Shown here: positions 2,724-51,765 of the stretch, in pieces
How the letters are laid out: each line of letters begins with the position of its first letter
Numbering within the stretch: the first letter of the stretch is position 1
Assembly: GCA_040755955.1 (NCBI GenBank)
Contig: JBFMAA010000009.1
Location: forward strand, 1 to 64,000
Length of the DNA stretch: 64,000 nt
Source: Thermodesulfobacteriota bacterium
Lineage (GTDB): Bacteria; Desulfobacterota; Desulfomonilia; Desulfomonilales; Desulfomonilaceae
Direction: 5' to 3'
The notes under the pieces: generated by a model
The model's input: the letters and a program-made list of their open reading frames with translations, nothing else
What the model was told of the DNA's origin: nothing
Databases searched by the model: none
Translations under genes and position numbers: made by a program

Positions 2724-3245
2724 ATGAACCACCAGGCCACCCCGATTCAGCAACACGCAGGTTCCGACGGACATCTGACCGGCGCCGCATTGACCAATCA
2801 TGGTGAAAGAGGGATTGCCTCCGAGAAATCCTTCTTCAACGGTCACGTGAGGGCGATCGCCCGCAGGACCACTCGGTTGCTCACCGCTGCGGACAAGGCG
2901 CTGCTGGTCGCAGTGCTTGTCATAGGCGTAGGTCTGTTCTACGCGATGCCCAAATGGCTCGGTCGCGGCGGAGGTGGTGTAGAAGTCAGGTCAGGGAATA
3001 CTGTCGTGAGCAGGTACACTCTGGACGGGAACAGAACGGTCGCGGTTCCGGGACCTTTGGGCAAGACCGTGGTGCGCATAGAAGCGGGAAAGGTGAGCGT
3101 GATCGCGGCACCCTGCCCCAACAGAACCTGCATGAAGACCGGACCCGTCGATCGGCATGGCGGCATTATCGTGTGCGTGCCGAACCGCGTAGTGGTCAGA
3201 GTGGGTAGCGGAGTTCCGGACGATTTGGACGCGGTGACCCAATGA
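2724..3245 (+). CDS. NusG domain II-containing protein (membrane-anchored), companion of Gx transporter
   Basis: C-terminal motif APCPNRTCMKTGPV...GIIVCVPNRVVVRV typical of NusG_II family; TM helix ALLVAVLVIGVGLF; true start may be GTG at 2847; stop overlaps next gene (ATGA). Confidence 0.6.
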   Translation: MNHQATPIQQHAGSDGHLTGAALTNHGERGIASEKSFFNGHVRAIARRTTRLLTAADKALLVAVLVIGVGLFYAMPKWLGRGGGGVEVRSGNTVVSRYTLDGNRTVAVPGPLGKTVVRIEAGKVSVIAAPCPNRTCMKTGPVDRHGGIIVCVPNRVVVRVGSGVPDDLDAVTQ

Positions 3246-4246
3246 CAGACCCGGTGAGGCGTTTGGCGAGGCTTGCGGTGCTGCTCGCGATGGCCACGGT
3301 AATCCACACGGCCGAAGCCCTGCTTCCGGTCACGGTGCTCTGGTTCAGATTCGGTTTTGCCAACATTATCGGATTGGCGACCCTGTGTCTGTTCGGGTTC
3401 AAGGACGCGCTGGTGCTGACCGTAGGGAGGATAGTGTTGGGCTCGTTGGCAACCGGCCAATTCGGATCCCCCGCGTTCATGCTGGCCTTTGCAGGGGGCA
3501 TCAGTGGGATTGGCGCAATGGGACTGGCACGCAGCCTGTCGGAGCGCCTGGGAGCCCGAATCGGCAGTCGTTTCGGTACTTGTCGGTCGGTATCCGACTC
3601 CGTGGCCGGCACACCGGTTGGCCCCCGGACCGGAAACACTGAAAACCCGGGGACGAAAGCCGACGCTTGTCCCCGCAGCGGTGCCGATGGGTACCACAGC
3701 TCTTCGCAGGCCGAACAGAAGCCTAATCCCGTCAGAGCGGACGAGCGTGAAGGCATGTGCACTACTATCCTTCAATTTCTTCGCCCGCTGAGAAGATTTG
3801 TTGTGCAAATCTGCTTCGGTCGAGGGGTCTGCGGCGGTTCTTTCCTGGGGAAAGCGTGCGGTTTCCATGTGCGTAGAACCAACCAGCCCCGCCATGGGAC
3901 TGCACGCGGACCGACCAAGGTCGACGCGATTATTGATTGCGGCTCACACCCGCTCTGTGTCAGTAATGTGGGTGAGGCCGCATGCCGGAACGAAGCGCCG
4001 GCGAGCGCGGACAATGAATCAAGCAGTGGCAGTACCGGTCTGTTCTCCGAGGTCGGCATAAGTATCATTGGTGCGATCTTTCACAACCTGGGTCAGTTGG
4101 CCGCGGCCTATCTGGTGCTCGTACGAAGCGAAGGAATTCTGCTTCTCCTGCCGTTCATGTGGATGGCCGCAGTGGGGACCGGCTTTGTCAACGGTCTGGC
4201 AGCCCGGTTCGTGGTCGAGCGTCTGCGGGCCGCGTCGCAAGGTTGA
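3242..4246 (+). CDS. Gx transporter family protein carrying an in-frame ~490-bp insertion (repeat-containing); possibly inactivated
   Basis: N-terminal 107 aa and C-terminal 63 aa (GISIIGAIFHNLGQLAAAYLV...) together equal a normal ~170-aa Gx transporter; middle 164 aa is low-complexity and includes dispersed repeat family A copy. Confidence 0.5.
   Translation: MTDPVRRLARLAVLLAMATVIHTAEALLPVTVLWFRFGFANIIGLATLCLFGFKDALVLTVGRIVLGSLATGQFGSPAFMLAFAGGISGIGAMGLARSLSERLGARIGSRFGTCRSVSDSVAGTPVGPRTGNTENPGTKADACPRSGADGYHSSSQAEQKPNPVRADEREGMCTTILQFLRPLRRFVVQICFGRGVCGGSFLGKACGFHVRRTNQPRHGTARGPTKVDAIIDCGSHPLCVSNVGEAACRNEAPASADNESSSGSTGLFSEVGISIIGAIFHNLGQLAAAYLVLVRSEGILLLLPFMWMAAVGTGFVNGLAARFVVERLRAASQG
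3840..3960 (+). repeat. dispersed repeat family A copy (core GCGGACCGA-AAGGTCGACGCGA-TTGG-TGCGGCTCCCAGCC) inside Gx transporter ORF
   Basis: near-identical to copies at 6905-6990, 7075-7190, 18525-18640, 40790-40885 and reverse-complement copies at 5195-5290, 8745-8840, 24470-24570, 38235-38335. Confidence 0.8.
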
Positions 4247-5179: not shown

Positions 5180-5295
5180 ACCACCGCATTGCAACGCGGC
5201 TGGGAGCCCCGGCCAATGTTCGCGTCGGCCTTCCTCGGCTCGCCCGCGTTACGATGGCGGGGAAAGTTGGTTCCACGCACGTTGATACCGCAGAC
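5170..5295 (-). repeat. dispersed repeat family A copy (reverse orientation)
   Basis: ggctgggagcc...cgcatg/acgatggcggggaaagttggttccacgcacg matches reverse complement of the family A core. Confidence 0.7.
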
Positions 5296-5407
5296 TGCCG
5301 CGGGGGTAGAACAGACACATCCTACGTTGCTGAAGAGGATTCGCTCAACGAGTTCTCGCTGCCGGCCAAGAAGTTGAACCACAGCATTGCAGCGGAGGAC
5401 TGTCGGA

Positions 5408-6894: not shown

Positions 6895-7000
6895 GCAGGC
6901 TGTTCCGATAACACGTGGGACTGCACGCGGACCGACCAAGGTCGACGCGATTATTGGTGGCGGCTCCCAGCCGCTCTGCACTACTATGCTGCGAAATCCT
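6895..7000 (+). repeat. dispersed repeat family A copy
   Basis: gggactgcacgcggaccgaccaaggtcgacgcgattattggtggcggctcccagccgctctg. Confidence 0.8.
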
Positions 7001-7074
7001 CGGCTGCCGCGAGGATTTCTTGTCGTAATCCGCTTCAGCAGCGTGGCAGATGGCCATGCTTCCCCCCCCGGCAG

Positions 7075-7190
7075 TGAGCGGTTTGCACGTGCGCAGAACC
7101 AACTCGCTCCGCCATCGGACCGCACGCGGGCCGAGAAAGGTCGCCGCGATCGTTGGCTGCGGCTCCCAGCCGCTCTGTGGTGGTGACCGC
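7075..7190 (+). repeat. dispersed repeat family A copy (tandem to previous copy)
   Basis: gtgcgcagaaccaactcgctccgccatcggaccgcacgcgggccgagaaaggtcgccgcgatcgttggctgcggctcccagccgctctg. Confidence 0.8.
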
Positions 7191-8413: not shown

Positions 8414-8718
8414 GCTGCGTGCGGGCTCACTCGCTGCCTTAGTGCACCCCATACGTTCACACATTCCTCGGCAGTCCGGCCGGCGAATCCCGGCTGACGT
8501 GAGAAGATGTTCCCTCCCAGAGAACGCAAAGGACGCAGAGGAAGACGGCGTTCCTTGGAGTTTTTCGCTTGATTGCTGGAGTCCGTCCTTTTTGGGATCA
8601 AATGCGTCACCCCCGGCTTCGAAGGTTTCGGGAACCTTGTCTCAAGGGATCAGGCAGAACCGGAATTGGACAGACACCGCGGCGACCAGCGTGAGCCGCA
8701 TGCTCCAGAAGTTTGAGG

Positions 8719-8925
8719 GGATGGGGGTCTGGTGGAAGGGGCGTTTTTCAAAACGACGGCTGGGAGCCGCAACCAAATTCGCGTCCACCTTTCTCGGTCC
8801 GCATGAAAACCCAGGGCGGGGCGAGTTGGTTCCACGCAAGCGAAGAAAGGCACGTTGCCTTCTCCCAGAGCTGCCGGCCTGAAGATTTCTTCTCGGAAAA
8901 GGAAGAAATCGAACGTTATTAGTAA
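8719..8925 (-). repeat. full-length family A element with terminal palindromic hairpin (GGGGTCTGG-GGAAGGGGCGTTTTT)
   Basis: contains core in reverse orientation plus flanking modules also present at 16790-17012 and 24465-24640. Confidence 0.75.
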
Positions 8926-12339: not shown

Positions 12340-12620
12340 GGGTCACCCTCCCCAGCGGCGACCACCGGGAGCCGCCATGCTCCAAGAGTTCCCGTGAAAG
12401 TCTCCCGGGGGAAACCCTTTTGAAAAAGGGTTGTCCCCCGGACCCCTTTCCGAAAACTTTTGAAACATCGGTGGTTCTGGCCATCCAACGAGTTCTCGGG
12501 ATGTCGGGAGGTGACTTTCATATTTTGTTGTGGCGTCATGCCATGACTGTTCTTGAGGATGGGGGTCCTGGGGAAGGAACTTCTTGCAAGAAGTTCCTTC
12601 CCCAGGAAGTCTTTCTGAGA
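12340..12620. repeat. dispersed repeat family C copy including perfect 30-bp palindrome GGAAGGAACTTCTTGCAAGAAGTTCCTTCC
   Basis: palindrome also at 17563-17592; other modules reverse-complementary to 70-230. Confidence 0.7.
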
Positions 12621-12625
12621 AACGG

Positions 12626-16769: not shown

Positions 16770-17012
16770 AACTTGTTATGGAAATGCGAATTCTGGGGGA
16801 AAAGGCGTTTTGCCAATAGCCTTCGATTTCTTCTTCCGAGAAGAAATCTTCAGTTCAGCAGCTCTGGGAGAAAGCAACGTGCCTTTCTTCGATTGCGAGG
16901 AACCTACTCGCCCCCCCATCGGTCTCCATGCGGACCGAGAAAGGTCGACGCGAATTTGGTTGCGGCCCCCAGCCGTCGTCTTGAAAGAGGCCCCTTCCCC
17001 CAGACCCCATAG
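16770..17012 (+). repeat. full-length family A element ending in CCCTTCCCCCAGACCCC terminus
   Basis: near reverse complement of 8719-8925. Confidence 0.75.
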
Positions 17013-17059
17013 TCACTAACTTGGGTGCCCTGCTTGTTCCTCCCGGCCTTGAAAGGCCC

Positions 17060-17150
17060 GCCCATTGTCTCTCGTCCCTCCGGGACGTCGGCGTTCCCAA
17101 GCCCCGCAGAGGCGACTGAAAATAACAGGACGCTTCAGCGCCGGGCAAGA
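17060..17150. repeat. repeat family D (GTCCCTCCGGGAC...CCCAAGCCCCG-AGAGGCGACTGA-AATA-C-GGA-GCTTCAGC-CCGGG)
   Basis: second copy at 47690-47770 with about 85% identity; possible small RNA. Confidence 0.6.
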
Positions 17151-17389: not shown

Positions 17390-17650
17390 GTCTTTGCCGG
17401 AAGAGGGCTGCCTCGGAATCACGTGTCCTCAAGAGCAGCCGGTGCCGGACGGCATAACGAAGGACGGAAGTCTCGTCTCGACATCACAAGAGCTCGGTGA
17501 ATGGTCAGAAGGGCCCAATATTCTGAAAGTTTTCGGAAGGGGGTCCGGGGGAAGCAACTTCTTGCAAGAAGTTCCTTCCCCCGGAATCGCATTTTCTGAT
17601 AGAGGATTTCCCCCGGTTGACTTTCTGATAAACGTCTTCCTGCGTCGACC
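17390..17650. repeat. dispersed repeat family C copy with 30-bp palindrome
   Basis: ggaagcaacttcttgcaagaagttccttccc and kgfppgdf-encoding module. Confidence 0.7.
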
Positions 17651-18215: not shown

Positions 18216-18499
18216 GTGCCATCCTCCTAAGGCTTCGGGAAAGCGAAGCAGTATCTATGCTTATCCATATATCTGCATTTTGAGCTCCTGTCAAGCCGAT
18301 TCTTCCCCAACGAGAACACACCGCAAAGCACAAATCAGAGAAGTGGGAGAATTCGCCCGTCCTGAGCGTTGCTTCTTCCGGTCTTCGGGCCTGCAGCGAA
18401 ACAACTCCACCATCTCTCGTGCCCCTCTTCCATGGGTCTTAATCTTCAGTTTCTTCACCCGCGGCAAGGATTTGTAGTCGAAATCTGCTTCAGCAGCAG

Positions 18500-18645
18500 G
18501 GTGGGTGGCGGTCCTCACCTGGGAAAGCCGGCGGTTTCCATGTCCGCAGTACCAACTCGCCCCGCCATCGGAACGCGTGCGAGCCGACGAAGGTAGACGC
18601 GATTGTTGGCCGTTGCTCCCAGCCGCTCCATGGTGTTCTCTGTCT
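18500..18645 (+). repeat. dispersed repeat family A copy
   Basis: gtccgcagtaccaactcgccccgccatcggaacgcgtgcgagccgacgaaggtagacgcgattgttggccgttgctcccagccgctc. Confidence 0.8.
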
Positions 18646-24318: not shown

Positions 24319-24464
24319 AGCAGTCCTGCCGGCTGGGTTGAAGCCGGTTGATCGCCTTTCGCTCCACGGCATGGAATTGCAGAATCGCGCTCCCACGTTG
24401 CGGGCCGTGTTCGGCTCGGACTTCGTCACGTATGCGTGTGCCGGTTTGGCCGTAGTCCCGAAAA

Positions 24465-24640
24465 GCGGCTGGGAGCCGCAACCAGAATCCGCGTCCACTC
24501 TCTCGGTCCGCATGAAGGTCCAGGGCGGGGCGAGTCAGTTCTGCGGAAGCGAAGAAAGGCGCGTTGCTTTCTCCCGGAGCTGCTCACTTGAACGTTTCTT
24601 CTCGAAAAAGAAAGAAATCAAACGTTATCAGTCAGAAGCA
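24465..24640 (-). repeat. full-length family A element (reverse)
   Basis: ggctgggagccgcaaccagaatccgcgtcc...gaagaaaggcgcgttgctttctccc plus flanking module shared with 8820-8925. Confidence 0.75.
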
Positions 24641-31858: not shown

Positions 31859-32079
31859 GGGGAGCGTGAGCATTGCCCGGCATTGCTTCTGCGGAGGGTG
31901 GAGGCCGTCACAAGATGCGTACACCATGTCGGACCCGACTCATCTCGCGGTGTGGACTCGCGTGATTCGTGAAAGATCGGGAATCCAGGCTGTTCGATGC
32001 ATGCTCGACCGGGCTTTGCCTGGGGTGACAACGCTGTCTGGTTGATGGAGCAGTCTTGTAACGGCCCCTGTGCGAAGCC

Positions 32080-33399
32080 ATGCGGATGAGGAGAGGAACA
32101 ACCGTGATTACCAAGTTCGCGATCAAGAACTTCCGCACCCATCGAGATACTGAGATCGAGTTGGGTCCTCTCACTCTGTTGATTGGTTCAAACAATTCAG
32201 GCAAGACAAACTTGCTCTCCGCACTGCGACACTTCTCTCTTGTTGTTGCACTGGGCAGACCCGACACGGGAGATTCACCCCCGGAGTCAGATGACAAAGA
32301 GCCTCTGAGGGCCACAAACGCCGGGCAGCAGTCCTTGCGCCACCACAATCTCTTTCCCCATAGGCACAGGCTCTCAGGCGATGACGAGCCTATGTCTTTC
32401 CGCTGTGAATGGAAGCGGAAATCGGGAAAGGGAAACTATCTTATCGAACTCTACAAAGATGAGAGCCTTCCTAACCAGGTTGGGTGCAGGGAGCGCATAA
32501 TCGTCGAGACCACGGGGGCGGGATCTCCGAGGACGTTTGAGTCCGGATGGGAGCGGCGCGTCGATTGGCCCAGTTTGCAGACTCAGATCAGAGCCGAAGG
32601 CCTTCCCAAGAATCAAATGGAACTCGTTTCCACTCTGTTCCGGGACCTGGCCCAATGTTATGCGTATCATCTTCAGCCCTCATTTCTCAAGGGGCGTTCC
32701 TCCGGAGACCTTGGGCATTCTCTCGAGGACCCGGTCAGAATCCCACGCGACCTGGGTTACGAAGGTTCAGGACTTCAACCGTTGCTCAAGACAATCAGTG
32801 AACGGGAGCGACGGACGTTCGACGGCTTCCTCACCTTCATGCGACGCTTTGAACCGTCTTTCCACGGAGTCAGGTTTGACGAACATCGCAAAGAGCTTCT
32901 GTGGGAATTCGATATCGGAAGAGAGCCTCCAGGGCTTGAACAATTCCGACCAGACGTGGTGTCCGACGGTCTTCTGCGCGCCGCCGCAATTGCACTGTTG
33001 TGCGCGATGCACAATCCCCCTTCTCTGATCCTGCTGGAAGAGATCGAGGACGGAATCAGTCAGATGAACATCGGACGCTTCCTTGGTTGGCTGAGAAAAG
33101 CGGCGGGAAAGCCGGATGCCCAGGACAAAGGATATCGGACGCAATTCCTCGTCACGTCCCACAGTCCCTCGGTATTGCGCGACTTCGCAGACCACCTGGA
33201 GGACGCGTATTCCGTCCGGTTGGATTCGAGAGGCTACCGCAGTGTCGTCACCAATCTTAATGAGTCCCTTGCGTACCTCGTCGACCTCGGTGGCGCAGAC
33301 GGCGAAACCACCGAGCGTGACGGCAAGAAGATCGTTCGGATTCCGCCCTATGAGCTCGTAGAACTTTGGTATCGCGGCACTATCGGAGGGGAACGATGA
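32080..33399 (+). CDS. ABC-type AAA family ATPase (AAA_21/AAA_15-like), predicted defence ATPase
   Basis: 439 aa; N-terminal FAIKNFRTHRDTEIELGPLTLLIGSNNSGKTNLLSAL (Walker A), C-terminal LILLEEIEDG (Walker B) and TSHS H-loop; stop overlaps next gene (ATGA). Confidence 0.7.
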   Translation: MRMRRGTTVITKFAIKNFRTHRDTEIELGPLTLLIGSNNSGKTNLLSALRHFSLVVALGRPDTGDSPPESDDKEPLRATNAGQQSLRHHNLFPHRHRLSGDDEPMSFRCEWKRKSGKGNYLIELYKDESLPNQVGCRERIIVETTGAGSPRTFESGWERRVDWPSLQTQIRAEGLPKNQMELVSTLFRDLAQCYAYHLQPSFLKGRSSGDLGHSLEDPVRIPRDLGYEGSGLQPLLKTISERERRTFDGFLTFMRRFEPSFHGVRFDEHRKELLWEFDIGREPPGLEQFRPDVVSDGLLRAAAIALLCAMHNPPSLILLEEIEDGISQMNIGRFLGWLRKAAGKPDAQDKGYRTQFLVTSHSPSVLRDFADHLEDAYSVRLDSRGYRSVVTNLNESLAYLVDLGGADGETTERDGKKIVRIPPYELVELWYRGTIGGER

Positions 33400-34151
33400 A
33401 CCTTCCGGACAATTGCCGGTGCGTGGGGATCGTGGGGGACGGGCCCACAGACAGGCAGGTGGTCGAGCGATTGGTCACCTGTTTGCTGAGCGATCTTGGC
33501 GGCGAGGTGCTGATATTCCATTATCTCGATGAGTTGACGCTTCACGACGACATGGACAGGTTCTTCAGGAAGGCTTCCAAACAATCCGATTACTCCTTGT
33601 CGGACGAACCGGCCCAGAGACTTCGCTCTGCGGCTTTCGATCTTCTTCTTACGGGAGTAGGCATGCTTCAGCAGAGGTTGGATAGGTCTCTGAGCAATCT
33701 CGATGTCCTTGTCCTGCATTGTGATGCCGAGTCGTTCCTGAAATCGCCGGATCAGCATTTTTCGGAACCCTGGGCCCTGGCGGCTGTGGTGTCGGTTCAC
33801 AACGGTATCGAATGGTTCTATCACACGCAGTCGGAACAATATGTGCCTAACGAATGCGTGCCTCTGATAGTTCCTCTCGTCATGTTTCCGAGTACCGAGA
33901 TCATCGTGGCTGCTGCCAAGACCCCAATGGGAGTTTCTTTCCGGTCCCGCGGCAAGAGCGCGGCAGATCTCAAACTCGATCTCTATAATGAAGCAGACCT
34001 TCGTAACCTCAGCAAGCAGGAATTCGAGCAACTGGTTCTCCAGCACATCACTGTTGATGCATGTGGCTCCATTTACAGGCATGTGCCGGAGACTCGCGCC
34101 TTCTTCCGAGTCCTGAGCTGGAACCGAGGCTGTATCCCGTCAACAGGGTGA
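33396..34151 (+). CDS. DUF4276/TOPRIM-like (OLD-family nuclease-like) protein, partner of upstream ATPase
   Basis: 251 aa; N-terminal VGIVGDGPTD resembles the EGxTE opening of DUF4276/RloB-like proteins; later VLVLHCDAE acidic cluster; translationally coupled to ATPase. Confidence 0.45.
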   Translation: MNLPDNCRCVGIVGDGPTDRQVVERLVTCLLSDLGGEVLIFHYLDELTLHDDMDRFFRKASKQSDYSLSDEPAQRLRSAAFDLLLTGVGMLQQRLDRSLSNLDVLVLHCDAESFLKSPDQHFSEPWALAAVVSVHNGIEWFYHTQSEQYVPNECVPLIVPLVMFPSTEIIVAAAKTPMGVSFRSRGKSAADLKLDLYNEADLRNLSKQEFEQLVLQHITVDACGSIYRHVPETRAFFRVLSWNRGCIPSTG

Positions 34152-34269
34152 GCGTGCGTACGGGTTTTTCGAGAGATTCCCTGATGCTTGCCGGTGGGAG
34201 GGCCTTGCTCGCCTTCAGCCCGACCAACCGTTCCGCATTTTGCGGCACGCTTCGGGCAGATATGATAAA

Positions 34270-37446: not shown

Positions 37447-37559
37447 GCCCGTTTCAGGCTCCCGGGCTTGACAGATGCGGTATTTTGTTGATACTGGATT
37501 GCCAATGTGAAATTATTCTGAGTTCGAGGCGGTCACACGTCTCGCTGAAGGGACCTGAG

Positions 37560-38243
37560 ATGCGAACCAACGCTCGATGGTGGGGAATTCTTGCTTCTTT
37601 CTGGACGGTGCTTGCCCTGGGAACGCTCGCGGCTGCCTTGGCTGCGGAAATGGCCCCGCCGGAACTGGGCCTCTCATTGCTGCATGTGGGGGAAGTGAAA
37701 GCAGGGGCAGTCGAGCTGCGCGTGTCCACGAACACTCCCGCGCAAGGCTTCTTTTCTGCGGGGGACCGCGTCATCATCACGCTGGAGGCCCCCCGTGAGC
37801 TGTACCTGACCGTCCTACACGTGTCCGACTCAGGCGATGTGACCATATTTTACCCGGACAAGGAAAAGGCTGAGACCGCGGTGGCTGCCGGTGAGAAACT
37901 GGTCCTTTTCGGACCCAAGTCGAACGCACAGCTCGTTGCCGGAAAGGAGCTCTCCAAGGGAGGGACGGTCGCGTTCGTGAGCCCAAGGCAGTTCAGCGTC
38001 GCACTCATGAGGTTCTTTCAGGGGAAGCAGTGGATGGAAATCTCCGGCACTGCCGAGCGCGACCTGAAACTGCTCAAGGAAAAACTCGAAATCATATGCA
38101 GGGACAAGGGATTCAACCGCATAGAGATTCCGATCAAGGCCAAGTCCGGCAAGAATCTCGCGCTCGGCATCACCAAACAGGGTCGAGCACTGGCCAAAGC
38201 AAAGAGCACCCATCGCAGAGTAGCTGGGAGCCGCTACCAATAA
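37560..38243 (+). CDS. exported hypothetical protein
   Basis: 227 aa from ATG 37560; signal peptide MRTNARWWGILASFWTVLALGTLAAALAA; no motif recognised. Confidence 0.5.
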   Translation: MRTNARWWGILASFWTVLALGTLAAALAAEMAPPELGLSLLHVGEVKAGAVELRVSTNTPAQGFFSAGDRVIITLEAPRELYLTVLHVSDSGDVTIFYPDKEKAETAVAAGEKLVLFGPKSNAQLVAGKELSKGGTVAFVSPRQFSVALMRFFQGKQWMEISGTAERDLKLLKEKLEIICRDKGFNRIEIPIKAKSGKNLALGITKQGRALAKAKSTHRRVAGSRYQ

Positions 38244-38340
38244 TCCCACCACCCTTGGTCGGTCCGCATGAAGACCGATGGCGGGGTGAGTTGGTTCTAC
38301 GCACATGCAAACCCCAGCGTGCTGCGGAGGAACAATAGCG
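38230..38340 (-). repeat. dispersed repeat family A copy (reverse)
   Basis: gctgggagccgctaccaataatcccaccacccttggtcggtccgcatgaagaccgatggcggggtgagttggttctacgcac. Confidence 0.75.
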
Positions 38341-38499
38341 ATGAACTCCTCTCTTGAAGCGGATCCCGACAACAGATCTTCGCTGCTGGAGAAGCATTCG
38401 AACGATAGTCGTGCAGAGCAGCAATGTATTGATTCCGCTCGATCACCGAATCCAGTGCAGGATCGCCGCACCTGAGTGATCCTGCTTGAGATGCAATAG

Positions 38500-40488
38500 A
38501 TGGCCAAGCAATCACGCACAGTCTTCAGGTCGAAGAAACCCAAGCTTGCAATCTACTTCGCCCTCGGGTGGACCTTGGCAGCACTTGCCCTGGTGTACTT
38601 TGTGCCCGGGCCTTTCGACATCATAGACTGGAAGCTGTTTGATCGCAAGATGGCCGGACAAGCTTCCCCCCAACTGGTTACCGGCATTGTGCACTTGGAC
38701 GTGGACGACAGGGCCATAGGAAGGTACGGTCAGTGGCCCTGGGACCGGGAAATGAGTGGCAAACTTGTGGAGAAGCTGCACCGGATGGGGGCTAGACTGG
38801 TCGTATTCGACATCTTCTATTCCTCTCCTGGCAAGAGCGACAAAGGAAACCAAATCTTCTTTTCGGCAATCAAAGACGCGGGAAACGTGATCTCCGCGAC
38901 TGGTTTACCCATCACGGACGACCCTCGCAGAGAGTTCGAGCCCAGGGGTGATCAACCGAGAATCGATGCGCTCCACGACCGTGCGTGGCCGCTTCAAATC
39001 CCTTCTGCTTTTCGGCTGTTCAGAGTCAAGCACCTCGAAGACACGATTATGCCGCTGATTGAGATCATACGCGACTCTCGGGCTGTCGGGCACATCAAGT
39101 CCACCCCTGACCGAGATGGCGTACATCGCCGGATACCGTTGCTGGTGAGGTTTGAGGACAAATGCATTCCCAGTCTAAGTCTGGCCGCACTAGCCGCGTA
39201 CTGGAACGTCCCTCCGGAAGACATGCACGTCCTGCCTGGTGCTATTCAGGTGAAGCATGCCCAGCAAGTGTTGAGAATACCGGTAGATGCGAAAGCCCAG
39301 ATGATCATTCGGTGGGAGGACCCGTGGTACGCGCTCAAGAGCTACTCTGTAATTGACGTTCTGGAGGACGAGAGGGACCCGTCCGAGTCCTTTTACAAGG
39401 GAAAGATAGTCGTCGTCGGGGTGACCGCGGTCGGTACGTACGACAGGGGCCCGACCCCTGTGGATCGAGACTATCCTCTGAGTCGGATACACTCACATGC
39501 CCTCAATACGATGCTCAGCGGACGTTTTGTCTCGCCAGTCGACTTCTTTCCCTTCCCCGCATTGATCATCGCTGTCGCGACCATCGTGTTCTCCTTCTTC
39601 GGTGCACGATTGCAGCTCAGAATAGGCATCCTTATCAGCTTAGCCATACTGGCTTTGCTGGTGGTCATGCCCTTTCTTGCCTTTTCGTATCTTTCGCGCG
39701 AGCTCCCTACGGCGGGCCTTCTCTTCGTATTCCTTCCTGCTGCAACCGCGATCCTCATCGAAAGGGGTACCGGCCTGGAGCGTGATGCCGCGAGGGCATC
39801 ACGAGCTCTGGAACGATACCTTTCCCCGGAACTTCTGGAATCCATCGTCGAGCGGGGCACGGGCATAGACCTCACCACCAAACGCATGGAACTGTCCGTG
39901 CTTGTCGTGGACATCGAGGGTTTCTCCACCATCTCCGAGATGGTCGAAGTGCACTACATCAATCAGTTCCTCGACGAGTTCTTCGAGCGTGTCACTAATG
40001 CGGTGTTCGAACAGCACGGGACAGTGGACAAGTTCCTGGGAGACGGGATGCTGGCCTTCTTCGGCGATCCCGTGCCGGTCGAGAATCATGCGCGGGCAGC
40101 CATCAGGGCAGCCCTTCAGATGCAACGGGAGATGGTTCCACTCAACCTCAAGTGGGTCGCGTCGGGCCTCGCCGCGTTCGAGCAGGGTGTGCGGATTCGG
40201 ATCGGTCTCAACACAGGAATGGTGGTGGTGGGGAACATCGGTTCCGCACAGCGCATGGAATACACCGTGCTCGGTTCCGCGGTGAACATCGCATCCAGGC
40301 TGCAAAGCCTCGCGCCGCCGGGAGGCGTCCTCATGACGGCTCGCACAAAGAGCCTCGCCAAAGAGCCGATCGAATACGAAGGCCCTCAGACCATCCGCGT
40401 CAAAGGGATCGACAAGGACATCGAGGTCTACAAGATCACCAAAATCCCCCCGAGACTCGACGAGGAAACTCCGCGGCCACCCGCGTGA
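38500..40488 (+). CDS. CHASE2 sensor domain adenylate/guanylate cyclase
   Basis: 662 aa; N-terminal TM + periplasmic CHASE2, three TM, C-terminal class III cyclase domain (VLVVDIEGFST...FLGDGMLAFFG). Confidence 0.85.
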   Translation: MAKQSRTVFRSKKPKLAIYFALGWTLAALALVYFVPGPFDIIDWKLFDRKMAGQASPQLVTGIVHLDVDDRAIGRYGQWPWDREMSGKLVEKLHRMGARLVVFDIFYSSPGKSDKGNQIFFSAIKDAGNVISATGLPITDDPRREFEPRGDQPRIDALHDRAWPLQIPSAFRLFRVKHLEDTIMPLIEIIRDSRAVGHIKSTPDRDGVHRRIPLLVRFEDKCIPSLSLAALAAYWNVPPEDMHVLPGAIQVKHAQQVLRIPVDAKAQMIIRWEDPWYALKSYSVIDVLEDERDPSESFYKGKIVVVGVTAVGTYDRGPTPVDRDYPLSRIHSHALNTMLSGRFVSPVDFFPFPALIIAVATIVFSFFGARLQLRIGILISLAILALLVVMPFLAFSYLSRELPTAGLLFVFLPAATAILIERGTGLERDAARASRALERYLSPELLESIVERGTGIDLTTKRMELSVLVVDIEGFSTISEMVEVHYINQFLDEFFERVTNAVFEQHGTVDKFLGDGMLAFFGDPVPVENHARAAIRAALQMQREMVPLNLKWVASGLAAFEQGVRIRIGLNTGMVVVGNIGSAQRMEYTVLGSAVNIASRLQSLAPPGGVLMTARTKSLAKEPIEYEGPQTIRVKGIDKDIEVYKITKIPPRLDEETPRPPA

Positions 40489-40514
40489 TTCCTATGGAAA
40501 TGCGAGCGCTGGGG

Positions 40515-40565
40515 GAAGAGGCGTTTTGAAGAACGCCCCTTCCCCCAGACCCCCTTCCCCTAAAA
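40515..40565. repeat. solo palindromic hairpin terminus (GGGGGAAGAGGCGTTTTGAAGAACGCCCCTTCCCCCAGACCCCC)
   Basis: near-perfect inverted repeat; same motif at 8741-8765, 16990-17012, 17195-17215, 47890-47945. Confidence 0.75.
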
Positions 40566-40779
40566 CTTTTGGAGCATAGCGTGTCCCGCTGGTCGCCGCC
40601 CGGTGTTGGATGGGTGAGCGGGATTGCGTCATTGTAGTTCGTTGTTCCCGCAGCGCGGACATGGGTGTTCTCATGCCAAGGGGAATTCCGCGGGAAGGGT
40701 CGTTCTGCTAAGAGGGTTGAGTTTCTTGTTGCCCCGGAAGAGACCGCCAATGGCCCGACAGCTCCAGGAATGTGCGAAG

Positions 40780-40890
40780 TGCCTTTCTTCGGTTGCGTAG
40801 AACGAACTCGCCCGCCATCGGTCTTCCTGCGGACCGACAAAGGTCGACGCGAAGTTGGGTTGCCGCTCCCAGCCGCTCTGTGTCCCCTGT
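40780..40890 (+). repeat. dispersed repeat family A copy
   Basis: gcgtagaacgaactcgcccgccatcggtcttcctgcggaccgacaaaggtcgacgcgaagttgggttgccgctcccagccgctctg. Confidence 0.8.
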
Positions 40891-47689: not shown

Positions 47690-47770
47690 GTCCCTCCGGG
47701 ACTCCGCCTCTCCCAAGCCCCGTAGGGGCGACTGAGAATAGCCGGATGCTTCAGCACCGGGACCCAAGGG
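47690..47770. repeat. repeat family D second copy
   Basis: about 85% identical to 17060-17150. Confidence 0.6.
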
Positions 47771-47884: not shown

Positions 47885-47945
47885 CCGTCGCCAAGTTAGC
47901 GCTATGGGGGTCTGGGGGAAGGGGCGTTTTTCGAGACGCCCCTTC
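47885..47945. repeat. solo palindromic hairpin GGGGTCTGGGGGAAGGGGCGTTTTTCGAGACGCCCCTTCCCCCAGA
   Basis: perfect 20-bp stems; family A terminus motif. Confidence 0.8.
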
Positions 47946-48105
47946 CCCCAGAATCCGTATTCACATGAGAATCCCCATGCCCGCGGGGCGGGCACAACGA
48001 AGCATGAAAAAAGGGGCGCTGGGTATATTATATAAACTCAGTCGGATAAGCGGCTGATATCACACAGGCTGACCCCCTTTTTTCATGAGAACGTGAGAAG
48101 TTCCA

Positions 48106-48951
48106 CTACTTGCCGCCGCGGGAAAACCCTCCTGAGCCGCCGCGACTGCGCGCCGTTCCCGACTTCCCCGACGTTCCCCCGGTTCTCGGCGTCCGGGCTT
48201 GAGTAGTCGCGGCCTTGTGGTATCCGGGTTGGGACATCTTCGTGTTGTCGAACCGGTTCGGGTTGAGACCGGCTGCCTGGTGTCTGTTCATCATGCTCGC
48301 CAGCAGGTAGCCCATGAAAAACCCGCCCATGCCCATGCCGAAGCTATGATCACGATGGTACCCGTTCCTGTCGGACGCGACGAGCCGCTTCTGCTTGTCG
48401 TCAAACTGAACCTTGAAGAGCTCCTTTTCGTCAGACCCGTCCTTGGTGTTGTTCTTGTTCGGGTCTTCGAACCCTTGCACGGTGCCGTTCTGCAGCATGG
48501 CGACGCCAATGGGCTTGGAGTAGACAGCCGCTTGGTTCAGATTCTCCGCGAACTTCGTGACGAACTCCTTCTCCTTGATCTTGTTCTGGGCAGTGGGCGT
48601 CTTGGGTGTCTCCTGTTTTTCTGTCGCGGTGTCGGTCTTGGGCCCAGTCGAATCAGCGGCCTTCTTGGGTTCCAGTTCCTTGATCGTGTCCCGCGCGGTC
48701 GGAGCCTTGGGTGTCTCCTGTTTGTCGATCGCTGCGTCGGTCTTGGGCCCAGTCGAATCAGCGGCCTTCTTGGGCTCCAGTTCCTTGATCGTGTCGGCCA
48801 TGATCTTCAGCACCTTGTCCAGGTCGATGAGCTCCGCCCTGGCAGCCCCGGAACCGGAAATGGGCGAATCCGGAATCCTGTCGGCTCCGCACCCCACCAT
48901 CATGACTGCGACCGCACACATGATCGCTACAATCGTCACTGTATTGCGCAT
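48106..48951 (-). CDS. lipoprotein with two 35-aa tandem repeats and Gly-rich tail
   Basis: 281 aa; signal peptide plus lipobox MMVGCGA; 105-bp tandem duplication at 48604-48808 encoding TIKELEPKKAADSTGPKTD... twice. Confidence 0.65.
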   Translation of the reverse strand: MRNTVTIVAIMCAVAVMMVGCGADRIPDSPISGSGAARAELIDLDKVLKIMADTIKELEPKKAADSTGPKTDAAIDKQETPKAPTARDTIKELEPKKAADSTGPKTDTATEKQETPKTPTAQNKIKEKEFVTKFAENLNQAAVYSKPIGVAMLQNGTVQGFEDPNKNNTKDGSDEKELFKVQFDDKQKRLVASDRNGYHRDHSFGMGMGGFFMGYLLASMMNRHQAAGLNPNRFDNTKMSQPGYHKAATTQARTPRTGGTSGKSGTARSRGGSGGFSRGGK

Positions 48952-51438: not shown

Positions 51439-51599
51439 GTGCCAAGGAACCCTTCAGCCCGCCGGCGAGAGCATGAACCATCACGGCACAGATACAACGA
51501 GAAACCCTGCTCCCAAGAATGGAAGCCGGAAGATTGCTCTTTGATTCATTTTGTGTCTCAGTGCCTTCCTGGTTCGTGGCTGTTCTTCCCCGCCGGCAG

Positions 51600-51765
51600 C
51601 CTGTGGTGTGTAATGCGCCGCACTAACCGTCCCCGCCATCGGAGCACGTGCGAGCCGAGGAAGGTACACCGCGATCATTGGCTGCGGCTCTCAGCCGCCA
51701 GGTTGGGGCTCTCAGCCGCCTGGTTGCGGCTCCCAGTCGCTCCGAGAGCGGACAGGGCAGGTCGG
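51600..51765 (+). repeat. dispersed repeat family A copy with internal duplication of the GGCTGCGGCTC-CAGCCGCC module
   Basis: cgccatcggagcacgtgcgagccgaggaaggtacaccgcgatcattggctgcggctctcagccgcc x3. Confidence 0.75.

Follow-up and report, generated by a model that had tools for sequence, protein, structure and literature searches.

An in-frame insertion built from a dispersed repeat in a Gx transporter family gene of a Thermodesulfobacteriota genome

Results

The transporter gene and its insertion

The window analysed here is a 64-kb stretch (64,000 nt; contig JBFMAA010000009.1, assembly GCA_040755955.1) of a Thermodesulfobacteriota MAG, in which a NusG domain II gene is followed by a transporter gene (Table 1). 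The stop codon of the first overlaps the start codon of the second by 4 nt (ATGA). The transporter ORF matches the PF07456 profile (Hpre_diP_synt_I in Pfam, "Gx transporter family" at NCBI) with 106.7 bits against a cutoff of 30, and the Pfam match is split into two stretches. An earlier description made from the letters of the DNA, referred to here as the sequence-only reading, had proposed a stop-free ORF of 334 aa, which our analysis confirms, and within it two Gx halves of 107 and 63 aa. The halves are indeed conserved and the GAIFHNLGQ motif is present, although their lengths are 102 and 68 aa. Both align residue for residue with homologues, and in an alignment with eight of these all 20 invariant family columns are kept, including E25, P29, N41, R63, A278, H281 and Q285. 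The closest orthologue (P0002, 73% identity) lies in the same pair of NusG_II and transporter genes at loci L001-L004, with the 4-nt overlap kept. The window protein is like other members of the Gx/PF07456 family in the match of its two halves, its conserved residues and its pairing with NusG_II, but unlike them its domain is broken by 164 residues at the TM4-TM5 loop, in place of a contiguous PF07456 domain of ~170 aa with a short TM4-TM5 loop. No second Gx paralogue was found within the 64-kb window. An identical protein at NCBI, MEW6348101.1 from a Thermodesulfobacteriota MAG, is the sole member of its own cluster, and the long allele is known from one genome and from this single database sequence.

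The additional residues are placed between the codons for R102 and L267 and are absent from all eight close homologues (185-200 aa, up to 73% identity). A phmmer search of 1.84 billion cluster representatives returned 1227 relatives, and the best 150 of these were taken together with earlier hits for a comparison of the loop. Among the 151 proteins of this set that contain both halves, 147 (97%) have a short TM4-TM5 loop, which departs from the short form by at most 6 aa in either direction and exceeds the minimal form by 0-6 residues. Because the close homologues (8/8) and nearly all of these representatives have the short loop, we conclude that the region is an insertion. The proposal of an in-frame insertion carrying a dispersed repeat accordingly stands, as orthologues with the same long middle region were sought and not found. 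The homologue alignment also bears out the proposed size of 164 codons or about 490 bp, and shifts the proposed position, 3560-4050, by about 10 nt to the left. Homology to the repeat extends to 3540-3542, which leaves an uncertainty of about 9 nt in the left border.

A target-site duplication was sought at the gene junctions, and no clean one emerged. The 24 nt after each junction have 14/24 bases in common, and FFSEIG of the orthologue can be aligned with either side; a better explanation than a target-site duplication is that the left side is homologous to the terminal motif of the repeat, GGCTCCCAG. Separately, the gene stretch just 5' of the insertion (3514-3537, CGCAATGGGACTGGCACGCAGCC) resembles the core of the repeat (3890-3912, CGCCATGGGACTGCACGCGGACC), with 13 nt of exact identity (3514-3526 and 3890-3902) and looser similarity beyond. 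This resemblance could be microhomology that bears on the origin of the insert, or it could be chance.

Table 1. Positions of the transporter gene, its insert, the copies of the repeat and other features (window coordinates unless a contig is named)
Feature	Position (nt)	Strand	Particulars
NusG domain II gene	2724-3245	+	PF07009, 81 bits; upstream of transporter; conserved operon partner
Transporter ORF	3242-4246	+	334 aa; Gx transporter / PF07456 family; no internal stop
N-terminal half	3242-3547	+	aa 1-102; predicted TM1-TM4; 73% identity to P0002; pLDDT about 90
In-frame insertion	3548-4039	+	492 nt = 164 codons (aa 103-266); stop-free; borders ±9 nt
Left arm, degenerate repeat copy	3542-3715	-	inverted; nhmmer E = 0.0012 (whole window)
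Right arm, full-length repeat copy	3755-3964	+	210 nt; nhmmer E = 2.6e-63, model positions 4-213
Right tail	3965-4039	+	75 nt; no other match in window
C-terminal half	4040-4246	+	aa 267-334; predicted TM5-TM6; GAIFHNLGQ motif; pLDDT 83-95
Repeat copy	5186-5396	-	intergenic, between convergent genes
Repeat copies, head to tail	6916-7185	+	partial 6916-6979, full 6974-7185; intergenic
Repeat copy	8757-8923	-	second subfamily; intergenic
Repeat copy	16817-16975	+	second subfamily; intergenic
Repeat copy	18437-18637	+	intergenic
Repeat copy	24459-24631	-	second subfamily; intergenic
Repeat copy	38209-38420	-	full-length; intergenic except for overlap with last 35 nt of DUF4384 gene
DUF4384 gene	37485-38243	+	
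Repeat copy, partial	40794-40883	+	intergenic
Repeat copy, partial	51570-51698	+	intergenic
Repeat copy, contig CAKYPM010000048.1	1840-2067	-	second MAG (L037); intergenic
Repeat copy, contig CAKYPM010000048.1	9999-10166	+	second MAG (L037); intergenic
Repeat copy, contig CAKYPM010000048.1	13720-13905	-	second MAG (L037); intergenic
Second repeat family, G/C-rich hairpin	17-108, 8700-8755, 12534-12621, 16977-17024, 17530-17592, 40487-40599, 47891-47973		GGGGGTCTGGGGGAAGG...CCTTCCCCCAGACCCCC
Acido-Lenti-1 RNA match (Rfam)	47716-47761	-	score 37.3, gathering threshold 37
104-nt segment	47658-47761, 17042-17145		79% between the two
Tandem duplication	48572-48781		105-nt unit (35 codons, 87% identical) inside ORF 48106-48951
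AAA_21/AAA_15 ATPase ORF	32080-33399	+	AbiEii-like/SMC-N-type domains; GC3 0.63, below neighbours

The insert is an inverted pair of repeat copies with a tail

We built a family HMM from five full-length copies of the repeat and searched the window with nhmmer, which found 11 copies, or 12 when a degenerate left arm in the insert is added, about one copy per 5 kb. The dispersed repeat that the sequence-only reading had reported is thus real, and a full-length copy does lie inside the transporter gene, although it extends well to the left of the 3840-3960 first assigned to it. This copy shares 72-76% identity with the other full-length copies and 94% with the partial copy at 6916-6978.

The insert had been described as a single inserted element, and that description missed a second copy on its left side. 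The reverse complement of the left arm is collinear with 3780-3955, with 68.7% identity over 166 columns; the arm-to-arm alignment has z = 12.1, none of 300 shuffles reaches its score, and the same-strand control gives z = -1.3. The left arm also matches positions 37-206 of the family HMM with a score that 0 of 1000 dinucleotide shuffles equalled, and it shares hallmark motifs of the family such as GGCTCCCAG. For the left 200 nt of the insert no BLAST match was obtained, and the opposite-strand neighbour was found only with nhmmer. As judged from these alignments, the insert consists of an inverted pair of family copies with their 5' ends facing each other, followed by the 75-nt tail. The left arm is closer to its partner (score 32) than to any other copy (scores 13-22), a pattern that two unrelated insertions would explain less well than a local inverted duplication or a pair of insertions from the same source. 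In addition, a 19-nt direct repeat links the tail (3991-4009) with the left junction (3540-3558) at 79% identity.

An arrangement of this kind raises the question of an assembly or binning artefact, in which the assembler threaded the repeat into the gene. The contig comes from a MAG rich in the repeat, and the 13-nt exact identity between the gene and the repeat core would suit such an error. We nevertheless consider an artefact very improbable, as the order, orientation and frame of the gene halves are correct, no long exact repeat common to other copies is found at the junctions, and neither the tail nor most of the left arm occurs elsewhere in the window. In chimeric inverted duplications the arms are identical; the arms here are only 69% identical, which makes an artefact of that sort unlikely.

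The repeat is dispersed, mostly intergenic and undescribed

The other ten copies in the window are all intergenic, one of them with a 35-nt overlap with a gene, as called from a crude gene map with ORF and Pfam checks. That overlap involves the DUF4384 gene, for which the repeat on the opposite strand may supply the last ~11 codons and the stop. A profile of repeat translations led, via the protein P0164, to a second MAG (GCA_936415355.1), where three copies lie in a 20-kb locus, all of them intergenic. One of these copies is annotated as P0164, a hypothetical protein of 72 aa, and is probably a spurious gene call. Taken over the 15 copies inspected (12 in the window and three in the second MAG), 13 are intergenic and only the pair in the transporter gene is intragenic.

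With a unit of ~200 nt, many dispersed copies and no coding signature, the repeat has the size (below ~500 bp) and copy number of a MITE. No terminal inverted repeats were found, as the ends of the five full-length copies pair no better than shuffles (p 0.07-0.9), and inverted arms occur only in the composite inside the transporter gene. In some copies the two ends carry matching direct repeats (18/20 nt at the 5186 copy), although this is not consistent across copies. In the head-to-tail arrangement at 6916-7185, the partial and the full copy share the junction motif CTCTGCACTACTAT. These observations hint that direct repeats, and not inverted ones, bound the unit. The unit contains only short internal hairpins with little covariation; a REP/BIME, which has a palindromic unit of 20-40 nt, was ruled out by the ~200-nt unit and its short hairpins. 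Because terminal inverted repeats and a consistent target duplication are both lacking, a MITE label is not justified, and the "MITE-like" character assigned to the element from its sequence is not established, the target-site duplication at the gene being likewise unclear. The element is an undescribed dispersed repeat.

Searches beyond the window added little to this picture. A 27-nt degenerate pattern of the repeat proved too unspecific, its matches in genome contigs being single chance matches in unrelated GC-rich genomes that nhmmer showed not to be family copies, and a stricter 32-nt pattern had no match in JGI metagenome contigs. Searches of proteins, made with the insert peptide and with a translated-repeat profile, returned almost nothing. 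They also failed to return the window protein itself (P0001), which contains the query, and the negatives of these word-indexed searches therefore carry little weight.

The window holds several further features (Table 1). Members of a second repeat family, a G/C-rich hairpin, often adjoin copies of the first. The Acido-Lenti-1 match is contained in a 104-nt segment of which the window has two copies, and for that reason the match may be a repeat and not a true sRNA gene. A tandem duplication within an ORF adds a 35-codon unit. The AAA_21/AAA_15 ATPase ORF falls in a region (31859-34239) in which the codon model called no gene, and the ATPase may be foreign or defence-related.

The insert is non-coding in composition, though open in frame

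A codon log-odds model was trained on 16 long genes of the window. The N-terminal and C-terminal halves score 0.385 and 0.382 per codon (GC3 0.76 and 0.71). Real genes, taken in windows of 162 codons, score 0.357 ± 0.095 with a minimum of 0.108. For the insert the score is -0.09 per codon, with a flat base composition over the three codon positions (GC1/2/3 = 0.60/0.61/0.60). The insert DNA is thus non-coding in composition, though it is in frame and free of stops. Its peptide includes 22 Gly, 16 Arg, 16 Ser and 9 Cys, and its RNA has a mild excess of folding energy (z = -2.2). No terminator-like or promoter-like site was found on the + strand within the insert, so that read-through transcription is plausible.

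Within the insert we found no Pfam domain, an intein domain included, and no Rfam match even at E ≤ 5, group I and group II introns included. These results bear on whether the segment is native to the orthologue group, as a long loop or domain, or is removed as an intein or intron. The open, stop-free frame speaks for such explanations, but the absence of the segment from all close homologues and its construction from an otherwise intergenic repeat leave such explanations with a probability close to nil.

How readily the frame could stay open by chance was estimated in two ways. Of dinucleotide shuffles of the insert, 1.2% are stop-free in frame over the 492 nt; of 492-nt windows from the non-coding DNA of the window, 9% are, a value that is too high since the non-coding set still includes a few real genes. 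As only one length in three keeps the frame (a factor of 1/3), the two conditions together have a chance of about 0.4-3%. Should the repeat be as common throughout the genome as in the window, this would not be a negligible figure. The frame of the repeat that is used in the gene is open in 7/10 copies, and the six frames of the insert contain 0, 1, 8 / 2, 1, 6 stops. The open frame accordingly lends modest support, short of proof, to the view that an allele could persist only by preserving the frame.

The insert maps to a predicted cytoplasmic loop

AlphaFold2, run on a shallow alignment of nine sequences, predicts helices at residues 3-27, 40-51, 53-71, 77-111, 270-294 and 297-333, with the insert between the fourth and the fifth. 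The pLDDT is about 90 for residues 1-111 and 268-334 and falls below 50 over the insert, which the model thus predicts to be disordered between two confident helices. No TM-like segment was detected in the insert (maximum KD19 = 1.03). Lys and Arg residues are found in the N-tail, at the end of TM4 and in the TM4-TM5 loop, and in the C-tail. The top Foldseek matches in the PDB are all ECF S-components (RibU, ThiT, FolT), although none is strong: the best has E = 0.57 and a TM-score of 0.46 on the target. In ECF S-components, which have six helices, the two termini and the TM4-TM5 loop lie in the cytoplasm. Together, the predicted helices, the positive-inside rule and the weak fold matches point to a protein of six helices with an N-in/C-in topology and a cytoplasmic TM4-TM5 loop. 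The location in a cytoplasmic loop that the sequence-only reading had contemplated fits these results, as the insert maps to the TM4-TM5 loop and the predicted helices, Lys/Arg placement and weak fold matches would put that loop on the cytoplasmic side.

The same loop carries inserts elsewhere. Four of the 151 representatives, from four other lineages, have independent inserts of 73, 63, 60 and 22 aa at exactly the TM4-TM5 loop (proteins P0135, P0155/P0163, P0110 and P0037; loci L032-L036), and these are unrelated in sequence. The allele with the 63-aa insert occurs on four contigs from different samples, and no second copy of this insert (P0155/P0163) was found in 20 kb that would mark it as a dispersed repeat. 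The TM4-TM5 loop is most likely permissive and tolerates the insert.

Recurrent inserts at one loop in four other lineages might also be read as a sign that the insert has gained a function, as a new cytoplasmic domain or linker, or as an RNA foldback regulating the mRNA, and the inverted arms and the mild excess of RNA folding energy would speak for it as well. Such a gain is, in our view, highly unlikely. The pLDDT of the insert is below 50, it has no Pfam or Rfam match and no coding composition, the inserts of the other lineages are unrelated and the one tested is not a repeat.

Discussion

We favour a tolerated in-frame insertion that probably leaves the gene functional. Repeat DNA would have entered the region that codes for the loop by transposition or illegitimate recombination, and an inverted duplication would have followed; alternatively, two insertions may have occurred. 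The result would be a disordered, non-hydrophobic segment of 164 residues in a cytoplasmic loop, which would not cross the membrane and would leave the topology unchanged. As no translocation would be needed, the protein should still be able to fold and probably works. The allele would have survived by happening to keep the frame, which is made easy by a repeat that lacks stops in the used frame in most copies. The insert itself is most likely a passenger without a function of its own. Among the evidence for this account, both halves are intact with normal coding scores, and the invariant residues and the 4-nt overlap are kept. Against it, the insertion doubles the length of a protein of ~170 aa and adds 9 Cys, which could well be harmful.

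The same doubling in length and added cysteines would speak for a gene that has recently been inactivated, making it a cryptic pseudogene whose frame stays open by good fortune in a repeat rich in GC and poor in stops. Several frames of the insert and of the repeat family contain few stops, and no other sequence found carries the insert. Furthermore, the composition of the insert is neither coding nor drifting towards coding, so it could be very recent, its non-functional product not yet purged. The left arm has diverged strongly from its partner (69% identity), which speaks against an event of very recent date, and a dead gene would not be expected from intact halves with normal codon usage and all invariant residues. 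In addition, a length divisible by three and the lack of a stop have the low joint chance given above, and inserts persist at the same loop in other lineages. Inactivation thus appears unlikely, though with an appreciable share of the probability, and between a functional gene and a cryptic pseudogene we lean towards the tolerated insertion.

Repeats inserted in frame within genes are on record for Rickettsia RPEs, ERIC and other MITEs (PMC10969869). With these precedents, and with the frame of the repeat open in most copies, the suggestion that either outcome would be unusual for a repeat element insertion was overstated. According to the account in PMC10969869, RPEs (Ogata et al. 2000, 2002) are about 100-150 bp long and nearly half of the R. 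conorii copies lie inside genes. By that description, the present case is like RPEs in that a short non-autonomous repeat lies in frame in a conserved gene, is open in the reading frame used and adds a peptide where the fold is predicted to accommodate it. It is unlike them, as far as that account goes, in its ~200-nt unit, in an insert made of an inverted pair with a tail, and in its host, a free-living Thermodesulfobacteriota MAG. The recurrence in many unrelated genes that marks RPE-like coding repeats is also not seen among the 15 copies inspected, of which 2 are intragenic, both in one gene. Intragenic copies of ERIC and other bacterial MITEs occasionally give in-frame ORF fusions (Delihas 2007, as cited in PMC10969869). 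On the strength of this citation, the present repeat is like ERIC and MITEs in being mostly intergenic and dispersed, with an occasional intragenic copy that extends the host ORF, and unlike them in that the single element here has neither terminal inverted repeats nor a clear target-site duplication. A likeness of the transporter to the fold of ECF S-components (RibU, ThiT) is weak (E ≥ 0.57).

A far broader proposal would be that the repeat family is RPE-like and seeds in-frame peptides genome-wide, and that the TM4-TM5 loop of Gx/S-component-like proteins is a recurrent landing site at which non-coding DNA is turned into new cytoplasmic segments; independent inserts occur at this loop in five lineages. 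We regard the proposal as improbable.

The insertion represents no new class of mechanism, and as an event of a kind already known it is a neat but ordinary example. It is a case in which selfish or repeat DNA has been absorbed into a protein without, in our favoured account, breaking it, and in which a membrane protein has doubled in length. The gene is annotated as an ordinary member of its family, a warning to annotators that an intact ORF may hide a repeat insertion. Provided that the long protein is produced and functional, it would offer a snapshot of the raw material from which new protein segments arise.
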